A DNA stretch of 64,000 bases. Source: Patescibacteria group bacterium UBA2773 (GTDB lineage: Bacteria > Patescibacteriota > Minisyncoccia > Moranbacterales > DUUL01). The DNA is taken from the NCBI GenBank assembly GCA_002352465.1, contig DEIN01000008.1:64564-128563 (forward strand), in the 5' to 3' direction. Shown here one piece after another: positions 4,969-63,904 of this stretch. The position numbers and the translations under genes were made by a program. The notes under the pieces are model-generated. The model was given only the letters and a program-made list of their open reading frames with translations. It made no database searches and was not told the origin of the DNA. Position 1 is the stretch's first letter. Each line of letters begins with the position of its first letter.

Positions 4969-8858
<3,890 letters not shown>

Positions 8859-54748: not shown

Positions 54749-54751
54749 TTG

Positions 54752-54824
54752 TGGACCAGACAGGACTTGAACCCGCTACCTCCTCAGTGCAAATGAGGTG
54801 CTCTACCAGGTGAGCTACTGGCCC
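54752..54824 (-). tRNA. tRNA-Ala (anticodon UGC)
   Basis: Hand-folded cloverleaf: acceptor GGGCCAG with G3:U70 wobble, D-arm GCTC/GAGC, anticodon loop TTTGCAC; no encoded CCA. Confidence 0.8.
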
Positions 54825-55019
54825 ATCACAAATTACTGTTAAACTATAAATTTAAGCAATCTTAAACAAGTAAAATTTCTTTACGAAAATTAAAATTTTT
54901 AAGTTAAATTATTTGAAATATTTCCGATACCTATATTCATAGGTTGAGAAAATTTTCAGATAATTTAACTAAAAATTTGAATTTGCAGTAGAAAAAGTGC
55001 TCGACAATAATTCCTCCTG

Positions 55020-55093
55020 TGGGCATATCAAGATTCGAACTTGAGACCTCAACATTATCAGTGTTGCGCTCTAACCAACTGAGCTATATGCCC
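55020..55093 (-). tRNA. tRNA-Ile (anticodon GAU)
   Basis: GGGCATATAGCTCAGTTGGTTAGAGCGCAACACTGATAATGTTGAGGTCTCAAGTTCGAATCTTGATATGCCCA folds as cloverleaf; loop CTGATAA. Confidence 0.85.
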
Positions 55094-58478: not shown

Positions 58479-58549
58479 TCGAGAATCGTCTAATGGTAGG
58501 ACAACAGGTTCTGATCCTGTCAATTGGGGTTCGAATCCCTATTCTCGAA
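58479..58549 (+). tRNA. tRNA-Gln (anticodon CUG)
   Basis: Hand-folded: acceptor TCGAGAA/TTCTCGA with U1:A72, D-arm GTCT/GGAC, anticodon stem ACAGG/CCTGT loop TTCTGAT, T-arm TGGGG-TTCGAAT-CCCTA. Confidence 0.8.
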
Positions 58550-58555
58550 CAAAAC

Positions 58556-58583
58556 AAGCCTGCAAGGGCTTTTCTTTATTTTG
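58556..58583 (+). terminator. Rho-independent terminator after tRNA-Gln
   Basis: AAGCC-TGCAAG-GGCTT followed by TTCTTTATTTTG. Confidence 0.5.
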
Positions 58584-58765
58584 TCTAAAAACCCTTGAAA
58601 AGGGTAAAACTCCCTCAATTTTACCGTAATGGTTAATTTTTATTTTTCATTACTAAATATTGAATAGTTACTTACTTAATGATAACATATCCTTTCAATG
58701 ATAATCCTGTTTTGGGATATTCCAAAATAGGTTTTAAACTAAACTATAATCTATCATTAAAAAAT

Positions 58766-58987
58766 ATGTCAAAAAATATTTATACAAAGGAATATAAGAG
58801 ATTATTAGAGAAATTAAAACAAGCGAGAAAAGATTCTGGATTAACTCAACTAGAAATTTCTCAAAAAATAGACAAGCCTCAATCTTTTATTTCCAAATGT
58901 GAATTAGGCGAAAGAAGAATCGACCCCATTGAATTATCGAAATTTGCAAAAATTTACAAAAAGGATATTAATTTTTTTATTAAATAA
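58766..58987 (+). CDS. XRE-family HTH protein, candidate R-M controller (C) protein (start adjusted to MSKNIY)
   Basis: HTH LTQLEISQKIDKPQSFISKCELGERRIDPIELSKFAKIY; 73 aa; immediately precedes endonuclease gene; TATAAT ~18 nt upstream of ATG. Confidence 0.7.
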   Translation: MSKNIYTKEYKRLLEKLKQARKDSGLTQLEISQKIDKPQSFISKCELGERRIDPIELSKFAKIYKKDINFFIK

Positions 58988-58996
58988 ATTAGAATT

Positions 58997-59560
58997 ATGA
59001 AAATCAAGCAACACAAAGCAAAAGTTTTTAATCAAGATTGTATATTAGAGCTAATGACTTTTAATAAAAGTGACGGCAAAAAATGGAAAAGACTTTTTGA
59101 TATGTGGAAAAAATTAAAATTAAGTTTGCGTGATTATAAGTCTCGAGAGCCAAATTTTCCTGAAGGATTATCAGAAGTGGCTTTTTGTTTGTTTTCTGGA
59201 TCAAAAAGATTCATATCTTTGAAGGGAAAATCAGCAGCTTCTTTTGATACTTTTAACACTGAAACTGGAAAGGCAGAGCAAATTAAAGCTTGTAGTGTAA
59301 AATCTGATCTAACTTCTTTCGGCCCTAATTCAAAATGGAACGATTTATATTTTTTAGATTTCTACAACGAAGGAAAGCTTGATGGGACTTTTAATGTTTA
59401 TAAAATTCCTTCAGAATCAATTTACAACATGAAAGTTAACAAAAAACAGACAATGAAACAGCAACAAAATCAAGGCAAACGACCAAGATTTAGCATTACT
59501 GACAAAATAATAAAAGATAAAAAGCTAAAACCAATCGCAGAAAACGTAAAAGTTTGGTAA
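58997..59560 (+). CDS. putative type II restriction endonuclease (small, PD-(D/E)xK-like; Bsp6I-like size)
   Basis: 187 aa; candidate catalytic block SFDTFNTETGKAEQIK; convergent and 8 bp from a C5-MTase; downstream of C-protein gene. Confidence 0.55.
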   Translation: MKIKQHKAKVFNQDCILELMTFNKSDGKKWKRLFDMWKKLKLSLRDYKSREPNFPEGLSEVAFCLFSGSKRFISLKGKSAASFDTFNTETGKAEQIKACSVKSDLTSFGPNSKWNDLYFLDFYNEGKLDGTFNVYKIPSESIYNMKVNKKQTMKQQQNQGKRPRFSITDKIIKDKKLKPIAENVKVW

Positions 59561-59568
59561 ATAGAAAA

Positions 59569-61143
59569 TTATTCGATTGCCTTTATCATTTTTTTAGCCA
59601 CAGCTTCCAAAACAGTTACTGTCACGGAATTTCCAGCTTGTTTATATAAAGCAGAATCAGAAAGATCTTTCGGCAAGATGAAGCTTTTAGGAAAACCTTG
59701 TATTCTAAAACATTCCAAAGGGGTTAATTTCCTGATGCCTTTGTTGTCTTTTATAATTGGTACATTATGTCCACCCATTCCCATATTAGCCGTTAAGGTT
59801 GGACAAACACATTTTTTATTTTCTCTAACATATTTTCGTCTCCATTGATAAACAGTGTTTTTATCAACAACAAAATCTTTTATTTTTTCATACAAAGGTT
59901 TACCTTCATAATAATATTTTTTATCAATATTCTTTTCTAATAAATCTTGCACGCTTACATTTAGTTTTACTGGATCAGGAAACTCAAAATTTTCTAAATG
60001 TTTTTTGTCTTTGAATCCAACAATGTAAATTCTTTCTCTATTTTGAGGAACATTTCCAAATTCCATACTATTTAAAACTTTGGCATCTGTGTGATAACCA
60101 AGATCTTTAAGTTTTTTCATTATTATTTTAAATGTTTTTCCTCCATCATGACCTTTCAAATTTTTTACATTTTCTAGTAAAAATCCTTTCGGCTCTCTGG
60201 ATTCGATAATTCTAGCAACATCAAAAAACAAATTCCCTCTTCCTTTTTCGTCTTTGAATCCATGTCTGTGACCAGCGATTGAAAATGCTTGACAAGGAAA
60301 TCCGCCCAAAAGAAAATCAAATTCTGGCAAATCATCAATTCCAATTTCTCTTATATCTTCAACGATTAATTTGGATCTTTTAAAATTTAAATCATAAGTT
60401 TTTTTACAATGTTCATCAAAATCATTAGCAAAAACAGTTTTGAATCCAGTTTTTTCAAATCCTAATCTTATTCCGCCCACTCCAGCAAATAAATCAATAG
60501 TTCTTAGTTTTTTTTGATTGGTGGGTTTAATGTCATTTTTAAAGCTTCTAACAATTTTAACTACAACGCCTCTGATTTCAACTTCTTCTCTGTAAAAGGG
60601 CAACATTGTTTGATTGGCTGGTTGTAATCTAAAGCAATTTTTCTCTCGGTAGATTTTTTTTAAAGTTGTTTCATTATCATCTATTATTGCAACAACAGTT
60701 TGACCATTTTCGGCAGATGATTGTTTTTTTATTACCACAATATCACCATCGAATATTCCTTCCTCAATCATACTTTCTCCTTTTACCTGTAAAGCATAAT
60801 ATTCTTGATTTTTTTGAATTTCTTTTTGCAAAATAGGAATTGTTCCTCTTTCAACTTCAATCGCTTCGATTGGTTTTCCGGCCGTAATAATACCAACAAT
60901 AGGAATATTGATTATTTTTTTTATTTTATTTTTTATTACCGGAACAATGCCTCTAGCAGAACTCCCTTCTTTATTTAGAAAACCTTTTTCTGATAAAGTT
61001 TGAATATGCTGATGCACTGTAGAAATAGCAGAAAGTTTAAAATGTTTTTTTATTTCTTCAAAAGTAGGAGATATTTTATTCTTTTTTATGTAACTTTTAA
61101 TGTAGTCCAAAATTTGTTTTTGTCTTTTTGTCAGAGTTGGCAT
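59569..61143 (-). CDS. LexA (wHTH + S24 autopeptidase) fused in-frame to DNA (cytosine-5)-methyltransferase
   Basis: Residues 1-200 align with LexA along its length (LTKRQKQILDYI...SARGI; cleavage-site AG in VGIITAGKP; Ser in KGESM; Lys in TTLKKIYR); residues ~205-524 carry C5-MTase motifs I FAGVGG, IV GFPCQAFS, VI ENV, VIII QNRERIYIVG, X QAGNSV. Confidence 0.85.
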   Translation of the reverse strand: MPTLTKRQKQILDYIKSYIKKNKISPTFEEIKKHFKLSAISTVHQHIQTLSEKGFLNKEGSSARGIVPVIKNKIKKIINIPIVGIITAGKPIEAIEVERGTIPILQKEIQKNQEYYALQVKGESMIEEGIFDGDIVVIKKQSSAENGQTVVAIIDDNETTLKKIYREKNCFRLQPANQTMLPFYREEVEIRGVVVKIVRSFKNDIKPTNQKKLRTIDLFAGVGGIRLGFEKTGFKTVFANDFDEHCKKTYDLNFKRSKLIVEDIREIGIDDLPEFDFLLGGFPCQAFSIAGHRHGFKDEKGRGNLFFDVARIIESREPKGFLLENVKNLKGHDGGKTFKIIMKKLKDLGYHTDAKVLNSMEFGNVPQNRERIYIVGFKDKKHLENFEFPDPVKLNVSVQDLLEKNIDKKYYYEGKPLYEKIKDFVVDKNTVYQWRRKYVRENKKCVCPTLTANMGMGGHNVPIIKDNKGIRKLTPLECFRIQGFPKSFILPKDLSDSALYKQAGNSVTVTVLEAVAKKMIKAIE

Positions 61144-61295
61144 TTTTGTATTTGATTTATTTTTTATTAAGCGTATAATTTCATTATAACCGAAAATTTA
61201 CCGAAGTGCAAATTGAATTTTAACGATTATTAAAAATTAAATAAACTATATGAAAAAAAGTGGTTGTCAAACTTCGAGAAGAATAATTTAAAAAT

Positions 61296-62156
61296 ATGAA
61301 TTATTTACCTCAACCGATAAAAGACTTAGCAACAGCAAAATTATCAAAAGTCGCAGATAAGTTTGTTGATTTTGTTATTTTGAAATACACAGGAAAATCG
61401 ATTAAAGTTTTTGAAGCTGAAAGTGATATTGAGGCTGACAAAGTTAAGTCAAGATGGGAAGTACTAGAAAAGCCTTTTTGGTTACAAGCAGAGGCAACGA
61501 AAATGGGACGACAATATTCTAATTTTGGAAATACTTTATCAAAAAGTTCAAAAATGATTATTACATCAGAAAATAAAATTGCTGATGACAATGATGTTTT
61601 CTGGGGGTTACTAGAACACTCAAAAGAGATTTCAAACGATGAAATGCAGGAATTAATAGCAAAGATTATTGCAGGAGAATATAACGCACCAGGTACTTAT
61701 TCAATGAGCATGCTCCAAATTATTAAAATGCTCGGCAAAAGCGAGCTAGAATTGTTTGAAAAAATTTGTAGCTTATTGATAAATAGCGATCAAATACCAC
61801 AAGATTTATTTTCTTTACCTGAAAATGCTAAAGAATTTATGAATGAACTCGGATTAGATTTTAGGAGCCTTCAGTTACTGCAAAGTCTTGCCTTATTTTT
61901 GCCAAATGATATGACCAGATCAATGAAAAATCATGAGAAGAAAAATTTTAAAATTGTTTATTTTAATAAAAATATTTTATTTTCACCGATTACACCGGGA
62001 GATGTAAATACATTAAAAATTAGCATACCTGGATTCTTTGGACTTTCTCCCGTTGGTAAACAGTTATTAAAACACTTGAATCCCAAGCCTAATGACCATT
62101 ATTTTAATTGGCTGAAGGATAACTATAAAATTTCTAACTATAAAATTCTTGAATAA
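61296..62156 (+). CDS. hypothetical protein in R-M island (possible abortive-infection/defence accessory)
   Basis: ORF track; no confident motif; location divergent from MTase. Confidence 0.35.
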   Translation: MNYLPQPIKDLATAKLSKVADKFVDFVILKYTGKSIKVFEAESDIEADKVKSRWEVLEKPFWLQAEATKMGRQYSNFGNTLSKSSKMIITSENKIADDNDVFWGLLEHSKEISNDEMQELIAKIIAGEYNAPGTYSMSMLQIIKMLGKSELELFEKICSLLINSDQIPQDLFSLPENAKEFMNELGLDFRSLQLLQSLALFLPNDMTRSMKNHEKKNFKIVYFNKNILFSPITPGDVNTLKISIPGFFGLSPVGKQLLKHLNPKPNDHYFNWLKDNYKISNYKILE

Positions 62157-62253
62157 TTACATATGAAGATATTTGATAAATTCTTGTTATTAATAATTTA
62201 AAATATTTTGCAGATAAGATTAAAATACACGAAATAATATGCAATAATAATCC

Positions 62254-62382
62254 CATGAATATATTATGGAAGTTGAATGATTTAAGAAACGATATAAGCC
62301 ACAATCGAATTGATGATCTGAAATATAATGGTCAGAGCTTATTTCCAAAAGAAAAAAAGGGAAAGATTATTGGATTATTTTA
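62254..62382 (+). CDS. short ORF with HEPN-like Rx4H motif (LRNDISHN), possible gene remnant
   Basis: Hand-translated MNILWKLNDLRNDISHNRIDDLKYNGQSLFPKEKKGKIIGLF. Confidence 0.2.
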
Positions 62383-62421
62383 AAGCTCAAGAAATTTACG
62401 AACAAAAAATCAAAGACGCAA

Positions 62422-62919
62422 TTGATAAAATTTAAGAAAAATATTATGGGACGAATAGAAATACTAGAAAAACTAAACATAGAATTAAAAAAAGATATTC
62501 ATACTGAATGTCAGGTGGTTTATATTTTATCTAAGATTAGGAAATGTCTTGAGATCAATAATCAAAAAAGTGAATATAAATATTTAAACTTTTATTGTAA
62601 TTGGGCTTTACATTCAAAAATTAATAGAGCTGAACCAGTGGCAGATATTATAAGAGAATTTATAAACGACAAGGATAATGGAAAATTTTTGCAATTTGAT
62701 TATTTAATAAAAGATTTAAGAAGATTTTTTAAAGATAATTCACTTTCGAAAAAATTATTTGAAACTGAAAATTATTTAAGATTCGCTAATTTATTAGTCG
62801 AAATTTATTCGGATACTCCGCTGGAGATTTACTGTGAAAGAAAAAGAATAATTACAATAAAAAAACCACTCAAAAAGTTAACAGAAAGTGTCTTTTCTAT
62901 TGCCTATGAAATTAAATAG
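62422..62919 (+). CDS. hypothetical protein
   Basis: ORF track. Confidence 0.35.
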   Translation: MIKFKKNIMGRIEILEKLNIELKKDIHTECQVVYILSKIRKCLEINNQKSEYKYLNFYCNWALHSKINRAEPVADIIREFINDKDNGKFLQFDYLIKDLRRFFKDNSLSKKLFETENYLRFANLLVEIYSDTPLEIYCERKRIITIKKPLKKLTESVFSIAYEIK

Positions 62920-63451
62920 TTATGTAAATTTAAAGTTCAATATAAAAACCCGATTGTTAAATTTTGAAAATAATAAAGTCTATGATAAATGAAAAAATAG
63001 AAAAATTTTTAAGAAATTTAATTTTAATAAGCATAAATTTAAAAATCAGGCTTTTTATACAGACGGTAGTCTAGGTTTCAGCGTTAGAAAAGATTCATTT
63101 AATAACGATGGAAACGCCACACAACTATCTGTTTATGTTTATGAAAATGATACAAGCAACAAAGATTCCAATAGAAAACCTCTTGTTATAAATACAACTT
63201 ATGGGATAGTAACTTCGGATGGTGGTATCAGAATTCGCTCCAATCCGAAACTTAGTGATCCTGTTGATTTTGAATCACACGGTTCATATTTCTATGATAT
63301 TAAAACAGAAAAATTTTATAAGAAAAATAAAAAAATTAATGCCGATAAAATCATTGAAGAAATTTATAATAAACATATAAAATCAACCAGATTTTTTGGA
63401 GGTTTTTGGCTTAGATCAAAAATATTTTTTTGGAAATTCTTTCTGCGGTTA

Positions 63452-63904
63452 TTGTTCTGGTCTATATCAAAAATATTTTATTTATTGCTTTATATTATTT
63501 CGGGGGATAAATATTCCTATGAACCATTTTTCGAAGAAGAAACTTTGAATGGAAAAATATTTAAATCTCGACTTAGACCGCCAATTGAAAATGTAAAAAA
63601 TGATGAAAAATTAAAAGAAGATCTAAAGAAAAGCGCAAAAATTAGTTTTTTTAATCATGAAGTTAGACATTGGCCAATAGTATTTTACTCAATATCGCAC
63701 GGATTATTTTATGTACTATTTATGTTAAAAAATTATAAACCTATTATTTTAATAACAGTATTTAAAAACAACTTTTTAACAATAATATACGTAATCTTGT
63801 CACTTTGGCTTGTTGAGACAATTACACCAAAATGTTTAATATTTTTGATTAAAATTTTTTCTAGATTGTCATTTACATCTCAATATAAATCTATAAATAT
63901 TTAG
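63452..63904 (+). CDS. membrane protein; reading frame is open ~440 nt further upstream without canonical start
   Basis: ORF track gives TTG start at 63452; same frame open back to a TGA near 62995 with no ATG/GTG/TTG. Confidence 0.35.
   Translation: MFWSISKIFYLLLYIISGDKYSYEPFFEEETLNGKIFKSRLRPPIENVKNDEKLKEDLKKSAKISFFNHEVRHWPIVFYSISHGLFYVLFMLKNYKPIILITVFKNNFLTIIYVILSLWLVETITPKCLIFLIKIFSRLSFTSQYKSINI

Follow-up and report, generated by a model that had tools for sequence, protein, structure and literature searches.

A LexA-fused cytosine methyltransferase in a mobile restriction-modification cassette beside tRNA-Gln of a Patescibacteria genome

How is the methyltransferase of a restriction-modification (R-M) system kept in step with the endonuclease it must counter, and how does such a system come to lie beside a transfer RNA gene? 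Both questions are raised by a locus in a 64-kb stretch of DNA (the window, whose coordinates are used throughout) from Patescibacteria group bacterium UBA2773, in which a C5-cytosine methyltransferase carrying a complete LexA-like repressor at its N-terminus is encoded next to tRNA-Gln. R-M systems have to balance the killing of invaders against the cutting of their own host, and self-restriction is an inducer of the SOS response. To our knowledge, Patescibacteria largely do without CRISPR and rely on R-M. In our study the locus is read, with a probability of about 65%, as a mosaic defence islet at the 3' end of tRNA-Gln, built around a mobile R-M cassette whose LexA-methyltransferase would repress its own synthesis until RecA-stimulated cleavage relieves the repression. 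The fusion probably ties self-protection to DNA damage.

The islet runs from tRNA-Gln(CUG) and a terminator through a controller (C) gene, an endonuclease gene, the convergent LexA-methyltransferase gene, a DUF2806 gene, a HEPN-like pseudogene and a gene for a 157-amino-acid (aa) protein to a frameshifted membrane-protein open reading frame (ORF). An earlier note on this DNA had proposed an R-M and defence islet downstream of a tRNA-Gln(CUG) ending at 58549, followed by a terminator and then by the C, endonuclease and LexA-methyltransferase genes. The tRNA was confirmed on the plus strand with its 3' end towards the islet (58479-58550 by ARAGORN; 58479-58549 by Rfam RF00005, 60.9 bits), as was a terminator-like hairpin with a T-run on the same strand (58556-58571). 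The three genes were recovered at or close to where they had been placed (Pfam, PADLOC, NCBIfam), and the domain assignments bear out an islet of accessory genes of R-M and defence type.

The LexA-methyltransferase and its operator

The fusion protein has 524 aa and is encoded on the minus strand at 59569-61143, with Pfam matches to LexA_DNA_bind (8.7e-15), Peptidase_S24 (5.4e-28) and DNA_methylase (1.7e-93). Its winged helix-turn-helix (wHTH) occupies residues 1-65 (nucleotides (nt) 61143-60949), followed by the Ala88-Gly89 cleavage site (nt 60882-60877), the S24 domain with Ser124 and Lys162 (residues 81-195) and the methyltransferase domain with Cys284 (residues 214-521). Judged by its sequence, the N-terminal half is a genuine LexA. 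It scores 169 bits with the NCBIfam lexA equivalog TIGR00498 (cutoff 111), residues 1-201 covering model positions 1-202 of 203, and it matches the E. coli and T. maritima LexA structures over their full length. Among PDB entries LexA 3k2z was matched at 2.4e-31, and M.HhaI was matched by the C-terminal part at 1.4e-60.

The three-domain architecture was found in at least 120 database clusters of 67-100% identity, and 290 confirmed matches among GTDB species representatives, distributed over many Patescibacteria classes, give a family of at least 290 members. A full-text literature search, with the LexA motif of a 2017 Patescibacteria SOS study lying outside the comparison, returned no description of LexA/S24-methyltransferase fusions or of R-M regulation in the candidate phyla radiation (CPR). 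The LexA-fused methyltransferase is the unusual element of the islet, widespread and apparently undescribed. Carriage of the fusion by phages was considered and rejected, as the viral contigs of IMG/VR gave LexA-less methyltransferase homologues only and no fusion. One related locus (related loci carry L numbers here), L018, has a second LexA-like N-terminal region at 1629-2222, with 58% identity to residues 2-202 of the window protein. This region, 6 kb away from the LexA-methyltransferase on that contig, may be part of a further fusion or of a paralogue.

Upstream of the gene lies a sigma-70-type promoter on the minus strand (61183-61212), with a -35 element TTGCAC at 61211-61206 and a -10 element TATAAT at 61188-61183; over 62 loci the promoter consensus reads ttga.t-TTCGGTttaTtTTCGGT-tatAat. 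The 17-bp spacer between these elements is filled by the predicted operator, a tandem direct repeat TTCGGT-N5-TTCGGT with an 11-bp period (61189-61205, minus strand), which is exact and unique in the window. An operator was found in the promoter spacer of 60 loci, 53 of which have a period of exactly 11 bp. No exact copy outside its own promoter was detected in the window or in 2 Mb of fetched related CPR DNA.

The main evidence that the LexA domain binds this repeat and represses its own promoter comes from the covariation of the recognition helix with the operator. Proteins of the helix class STVH[QE]H are paired with the repeat unit TTCGGT (56 loci), SGVYQH with TTCWGT (7 loci), STAH[YH]Y with TTTCTA (8 loci) and STAHHH with ATCGAAA (3 loci). 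The correspondence is one-to-one, with zero off-diagonal cases in 74 loci, and the variant repeats keep both the place and the period of the operator. This comparative evidence shows the LexA domain as the predicted ligand of the tandem repeat and the methyltransferase as the predicted repressor of its own synthesis. The four helix-operator classes also provide LexA specificity variants with which the evolution of LexA recognition can be studied.

Between the methyltransferase start codon and the operator, a promoter-like site TTGATT-16-TATAAT was identified on the opposite strand (61152-61179, plus strand). An equivalent site is present in 24 of the 56 operator-bearing loci, compared with 2.0 in shuffled sequences, and it mostly has the sigma-70-like form TTGnnn-17-TACAAT. 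Such a site would drive transcription through the operator towards the DUF2806 gene or, at other loci, the divergent neighbour.

The residues needed for LexA self-cleavage have been kept throughout the family. In the 201 sequences checked (81 locus sequences and 120 database clusters), Ser124, Lys162 and the methyltransferase residue Cys284 are invariant; Ala88 is present in 200, being replaced by Thr in one database cluster, and at least 95% of the 81 locus sequences have kept Gly89. The invariance of Ser124, Lys162 and Ala88 points to selection for self-cleavage, so that RecA filaments should free the DNA-binding domain. The S24 domain might instead serve for dimerisation only, in a methyltransferase that represses itself as the SsoII type does through an N-terminal helix-turn-helix (HTH), with no response to DNA damage. 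The C-terminal domain of LexA does form the dimer interface, the HTH-methyltransferase fusions SsoII and Ecl18kI autoregulate without any cleavage, and cleavage of the present protein is a prediction. However, the cleavage residues stay constant across lineages in which the linker and large parts of the HTH region differ, a pattern that is hard to explain without selection for proteolysis, and we consider a role in dimerisation alone unlikely.

Methyltransferases of the SsoII, Ecl18kI, EcoRII and MspI type likewise carry a DNA-binding domain at the N-terminus of a C5-methyltransferase and have its operator in their own promoter region beside an opposing promoter, the operator being recognised here by sequence comparison. 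In the present fusion, however, a LexA winged helix and an S24 self-cleaving protease take the place of the short Xre-type HTH, the operator is a direct and not an inverted repeat, the cleavage site predicts a signal-dependent release, and the promoter on the opposite strand points at a defence or Vsr gene that varies between loci instead of at the endonuclease gene. Because its regulatory domain comes from a different family, the fusion is not a member of the SsoII group despite the same working principle. To LexA it is similar over the full length, with the wHTH, the Ala-Gly cleavage site and the catalytic Ser/Lys pair all present; its operator overlaps its own promoter, and, like lambda CI and SetR of SXT, it is encoded by a mobile element. 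It differs from these repressors in that its C-terminus is fused to an enzyme and that no regulon beyond its own locus was detected in the window or in the 2 Mb of related DNA, and the operator variants are private to the cassette.

The cassette, its partners and its movement

The cassette belongs to the C-controlled type II R-M kind. A controller protein of 73 aa is encoded on the plus strand at 58766-58987 (Pfam HTH_3, 4.3e-10; PADLOC Control_protein, 1.2e-3), and 35 nt upstream of its gene lies a C-box-like palindrome, CCTGTTTTGG-N6-CCAAAATAGG (58706-58731, plus strand), which is unique in the window. An equivalent palindrome precedes every C gene in related loci (at least 16 loci). Homologues of the C protein at the same position in 16 loci have 72-73 aa and the C-box falls inside the longer ORF from 58679; the gene is therefore taken to start at 58766, and the longer ORF is considered over-extended. 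A type II restriction endonuclease of the Bsp6I family follows on the same strand at 58997-59560 (Pfam RE_Bsp6I, 9.2e-13; PADLOC REase_II, 7.8e-30); its stop codon lies 8 nt from that of the convergent methyltransferase gene. The prototype of the Bsp6I family cuts GCNGC. Of the 16 palindromes of the form XYNY'X', none is as strongly depleted in the window as GCNGC, with 47 occurrences where 76 would be expected (ratio 0.62). This depletion agrees with a target of this type, and the target of the methyltransferase is probably of GCNGC type.

PvuII, AhdI and Esp1396I, and the Bsp6I family, resemble this arrangement: a small HTH C protein is encoded directly upstream of the endonuclease and in the same direction. 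For the PvuII, AhdI and Esp1396I type, the palindromic C-box before the C gene, the separate methyltransferase promoter and the convergent layout are further points of likeness. In contrast to that type, the methyltransferase here has a second regulatory layer of its own, a full LexA; the same methyltransferase family is paired with at least 8 unrelated endonuclease families, and 64 of 80 LexA-methyltransferase copies have no C protein. In 78 of the 80 fetched loci a neighbouring gene lies a few nt past the methyltransferase stop codon, in convergent orientation in 75. These neighbours belong to no fewer than 8 unrelated clusters, with Bsp6I-like, NgoFVII-like and PD-(D/E)XK proteins and several unannotated ones among them; Bsp6I-type homologues are convergent with the methyltransferase in 20-21 of the 80 loci. 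The target-recognition region of the methyltransferase is highly conserved across loci with differing endonucleases.

The 2.6-kb cassette was delimited as a block of nucleotide homology by blastn at 58659-61255, beginning about 110 nt past the 3' end of tRNA-Gln. L170 shares this block at 86% nucleotide identity and L166 at 81%, and the sequences on either side are otherwise unrelated; the nearest relatives of the fusion protein, at 82-89% identity, stand in differing neighbourhoods. The L166 cassette also lies by a tRNA-Gln(CUG), 96% identical to that of the window, and has a complete Gabija pair on its other side (GajA 8e-120, GajB 3e-157). A 13-codon ORF, MKKSGCQTSRRII, at 61249-61290 starts where the divergent cargo of the two closest cassettes starts (a GIY-YIG gene in L170, GajA in L166), and the cassette homology stops at its start codon. 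This suggests that cargo genes are swapped at a fixed junction.

The association with tRNA genes extends to the family. A tRNA gene is found no more than 3 kb from the cassette on its endonuclease side in 19 of the 56 independent loci with enough flanking sequence; the background is 11-14%, and on the other side only 1 of 58 has one. The 3' end of the nearest tRNA points towards the cassette in 20 loci and away from it in 3 (p = 5e-4). In L005, L024 and L080, the cassette and a few further genes (3.7-6.3 kb) are enclosed by exact direct repeats of 17-26 nt of the tRNA 3' end, located at 6690-6710 and 10441-10461 in L005, at 7056-7072 and 12863-12879 in L024, and at 30-55 and 6343-6368 in L080. 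A repeat in L033 (12249-12274 and 12363-12388) lies merely about 90 nt from the tRNA. The tRNAs whose 3' ends are repeated across L005, L080, L024 and L033 are those for Trp, Gly, Glu and Gln. No recombinase was found inside the repeat-flanked islets of 3.7-6.3 kb. These tRNA-flanked islets of 4-6 kb illustrate how such cassettes move.

Like the known tRNA-associated genomic and defence islands, the locus abuts a tRNA 3' end and contains accessory, defence and decayed genes, and members of the family are likewise flanked by direct repeats of the tRNA 3' end. Compared with typical islands of this kind it differs in its very small size (3.7-6.3 kb in relatives) and in that the repeat-flanked copies have no integrase inside. 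By analogy with these relatives, insertion at the tRNA is likely for the present copy and partly supported, though unproven.

In 10 loci, large serine recombinases are encoded no more than 10 kb from the cassette, and five of these loci have terminase-like genes alongside them. In L013, L033, L034, L037 and L057 (for example L033, 4229-9921) the neighbours of the cassette form a conserved block, made up of genes for an N6/N4 methylase, a large serine recombinase and an HTH protein of small-terminase-like type, and L033 also has a Terminase_6C protein; the block looks like a prophage or a satellite-like element. Neighbours of about 300 aa were inspected in ten loci as candidate tyrosine integrases, and none was one; they were Mrr, AbiTii, SduA and DUF3800 proteins or unannotated.

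Proposed feedback and competing explanations

In the proposed mechanism, the C protein and its C-box would time the expression of the Bsp6I-family endonuclease, while the convergent C5-methyltransferase would protect the host at a target that is probably of GCNGC type. The LexA winged helix, seated on TTCGGT-N5-TTCGGT between the -35 and -10 elements, would repress the methyltransferase promoter. RecA filaments would form on damaged DNA, for instance where the endonuclease has cut the host at unmethylated sites, and would bring about self-cleavage at the Ala-Gly site; the DNA-binding domain would be detached, the promoter derepressed and the methyltransferase level raised, and expression of the divergently transcribed neighbour may rise as well. 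The net effect would be a private, SOS-like negative feedback that limits self-restriction. The downstream genes, in this reading, were acquired separately and are accessory or decayed. A methyltransferase with a cleavable LexA would thus close the loop in one polypeptide, with a damage signal going in and more protection coming out. With at least 290 species representatives, the family is possibly a major regulatory design for defence in a large and poorly studied branch of bacteria.

Several points weigh against this reading. It is from sequence that we infer the binding of the operator, the dependence of cleavage on RecA and the target of methylation. The helix-operator covariation represents only 4-6 independent lineages, and a symmetric LexA dimer on a direct repeat is unusual, though precedented: in Alphaproteobacteria there are LexA boxes made of direct repeats, GTTC-N7-GTTC, whose period is 11 bp (PMC8565304). 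After cleavage, the S24-methyltransferase fragment could be stable or could be degraded, and degradation would reverse the predicted outcome. A RecA gene was not located in the available sequence. In GC content the cassette (28-30%) is no different from the genome (about 31%). The earlier note had suggested looking past the window end for a repeat of the tRNA-Gln 3' end and an integrase, and neither turned up in the 161 nt that remain before the source contig (ENA ERZ27237539 k141_1597638) ends at 64161, within the islet or shortly past it: up to that position there is no exact repeat of at least 12 nt of the tRNA-Gln 3' end (...GGTTCGAATCCCTATTCTCGAA), no second copy of this end with up to 3 mismatches over 24 nt was found in the available sequence, and no integrase or recombinase was detected in 58551-64161 by Pfam, PADLOC, NCBIfam or PHROG. 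The contigs of the close relatives L083 and L084 stop just past cspA and offer no empty-site comparison for this copy.

The proposal of an island inserted at tRNA-Gln therefore stands as regards the mobile cassette, the family-wide bias towards tRNA 3' ends and the direct repeats found at L005, L024 and L080, and it lacks the attachment (att) repeat and the integrase in the window. On these last two points, and on the unremarkable GC content, rests the explanation that the genes past tRNA-Gln are long-standing, vertically inherited chromosome and that the proximity to the tRNA is coincidental. The DUF2806 gene, moreover, is present in 5 of 5 assemblies of the source organism; every contig read stops in this region, and the other assemblies add no flank beyond the contig end. 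Vertical inheritance would nevertheless have to accommodate a cassette with sharp homology limits and differing contexts, the association of the family with tRNA 3' ends, the att repeats of three relatives, and downstream genes that are either sporadic across phyla or pseudogenes. Such an origin appears quite improbable.

The fate of the cleaved protein bears on a further explanation, in which damage-triggered cleavage inactivates or destabilises the methyltransferase and leaves the endonuclease to kill the cell, so that the fusion would act as an abortive-infection or addiction switch and not as a protective feedback. The fragments of E. coli LexA are degraded by ClpXP and Lon, and the cassette is found among genes of abortive-infection type both in the window and in relatives. 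Cleavage would, however, take off only the 88-residue DNA-binding part and leave the methyltransferase domain intact, and derepression of the promoter would increase synthesis instead of decreasing it; a suicidal outcome is accordingly given little credence. Least credible of all is that the fusion is the housekeeping LexA, a global SOS repressor carrying a methyltransferase in a core-genome locus, for although it passes the lexA equivalog cutoff over the full model length, its homologues are named 'transcriptional repressor LexA' by NCBI and the window holds no second LexA, exact operator copies are confined to its own promoter in 2 Mb of related DNA, flanks are unrelated even between copies of 82-89% identity, the gene is always paired with an endonuclease (the neighbour at the methyltransferase stop in 78/80 loci), separate LexA/S24 genes of about 30% identity lie nearby in L006, L026, L033, L037 and L170, and the identity of 63-76% across CPR classes fits horizontal spread.

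Going beyond the self-repressing methyltransferase of the preferred reading, it can be speculated that the fusion is a private, element-encoded damage switch for the mini defence islands of CPR bacteria, in which cleavage both raises methylation and switches on the neighbouring cargo; we regard this extension as tentative. The operator may serve here as a control point between two opposing promoters, the cargo being, according to the locus, DUF2806/Belisama, Gabija, AbiTii, Shedu or Vsr. Were this true, damage or infection would induce defence genes that are otherwise toxic, and the R-M system would correct itself against autoimmunity.

A perfect DnaA-box 9-mer, TGTGGATAA (the reverse complement of TTATCCACA), precedes the first operator repeat by 19-24 nt in 35 promoters of the family, about 80 nt upstream of the methyltransferase start, among L003-L082 (e.g. 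L003, L004 and L008). This spot accounts for 35 of the 75 occurrences of the 9-mer in 2.04 Mb of fetched DNA; the box is absent from the window promoter (61213-61250). Half of the loci have the box next to the -35 element, where it may provide the methyltransferase, and with it the proposed switch, with an input from the replication cycle.

Downstream and neighbouring genes

Beyond the methyltransferase promoter, a protein of 286 aa is encoded on the plus strand at 61296-62156. It had been taken for an orphan, a description that no longer holds: it is a DUF2806 protein (Pfam 70.5 bits against a cutoff of 24.5, 2.3e-19). Its homologues form 341 clusters, and copies in other phyla, in metagenome-assembled genomes of Brocadiaceae and Alphaproteobacteria, reach 60-67% identity. 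The same domain is that of Belisama, a system of one gene whose abortive-infection activity against phage, by lysis or arrested growth, has been validated by experiment in Vibrio cholerae (bioRxiv 10.1101/2024.07.02.601686), and the window protein is a candidate Belisama-like abortive-infection gene. It shares with Belisama of the V. cholerae integron cassettes a DUF2806 score above the Pfam threshold, the single-gene form, a similar size and a defence context. It differs in its distant sequence (62 bits with the related NCBIfam TIGR03899, cutoff 156) and its CPR host, and it is known here from sequence alone. No PADLOC model was matched by this protein.

The next gene is a HEPN-like pseudogene of a family of about 200 aa (62180-62435, plus strand), in which the N-terminal 90-130 residues or so are missing and a frameshift occurs in an A7 run near 62350. 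The earlier note had pointed out a 42-aa fragment with a HEPN-like Rx4H motif, and this fragment indeed belongs to such a family: the open frame around it, 62180-62380, matches residues ~90-190 of proteins of 180-240 aa, with E-values down to 4e-13. In a 31-sequence alignment of the family the motif LRNDxSHNR has invariant R36 and H41 (Rx4H), and N37 and S40 are conserved in at least 90%. By its sequence the 42-aa ORF is a remnant of a HEPN-like gene, with weak profile support, the sole Pfam HEPN signal being a sub-threshold HEPN_Apea match (5.6e-3) in one family member. The window copy is classed as a pseudogene because the N-terminal third to half is missing and the remainder continues in another frame past the A7 run.

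Two further frames follow on the plus strand. At 62446-62919 lies the gene for the 157-aa accessory protein, whose family of 47 clusters is sporadic over several phyla in genomic contexts unrelated to one another. Pfam, PADLOC, NCBIfam and PHROG gave no match for it, and a fold comparison of its AlphaFold2 model (mean predicted local distance difference test score, pLDDT, 89) with the PDB reached a best E-value of 1, which is no match. The membrane-protein frame of about 300 codons at 62954-63904 has no ATG, GTG or TTG before 63452, and a candidate ATG at 62982 lies in another frame, across A-rich runs. It is probably frameshifted, either by mutation or by a homopolymer assembly error; neither the 139-aa nor the 300-aa version gave a match in the same four collections. 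Recoding of UGA was ruled out as the cause of the missing start, since TGA ends 3 of 32 long ORFs and long genes are intact under code 11.

The suggestion that abortive-infection or toxin genes stand beside the R-M module is supported in so far as DUF2806 is the Belisama domain and the HEPN-like remnant is real; two of these genes are pseudogenes, and no toxin function is demonstrated. The proposed remote-homology searches placed 61296-62156 in DUF2806, and 62422-62919, whose real start is 62446, gave neither a domain nor a fold match.

At other loci the promoter-side neighbours are often defence genes as well; they include Gabija GajA/GajB, AbiTii (2e-43), Shedu SduA_C, Mrr, PDC-S42 and DUF3644 proteins, and Vsr in 10-11 loci. 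Such promoter-side defence genes were located at 6269-9965 in L166, 8967-9869 in L028, 8605-9585 in L053, 8528-9439 in L061, 8306-9259 in L024 and 9069-9902 in L163.

On the other side of tRNA-Gln, cspA and the malic enzyme gene had been named as core neighbours, and their synteny was recovered in L083 and L084, the sole close relatives found, at 91-96% aa identity (malic enzyme 91%, CspA 96%). These relatives come from a malic-enzyme search of metagenome contigs that covered 80 loci, in which synteny is lost below about 76% identity. Further upstream, at 54751-55093 on the minus strand, tRNA-Ala(UGC) and tRNA-Ile(GAU) form a pair. As no rRNA gene was detected across the 64-kb window, these spacer-type tRNAs are unlinked from rRNA here.

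Homologues of the islet genes also recur in other R-M settings. In L183 (2574-5864) and L172 (1-2505), homologues of the DUF2806 and 157-aa proteins are encoded directly downstream of type IIG methylase-specificity genes of Eco57I/MmeI-like type, and in L181 a DUF2806 gene lies 4 kb from another LexA-methyltransferase/Bsp6I/C cassette.

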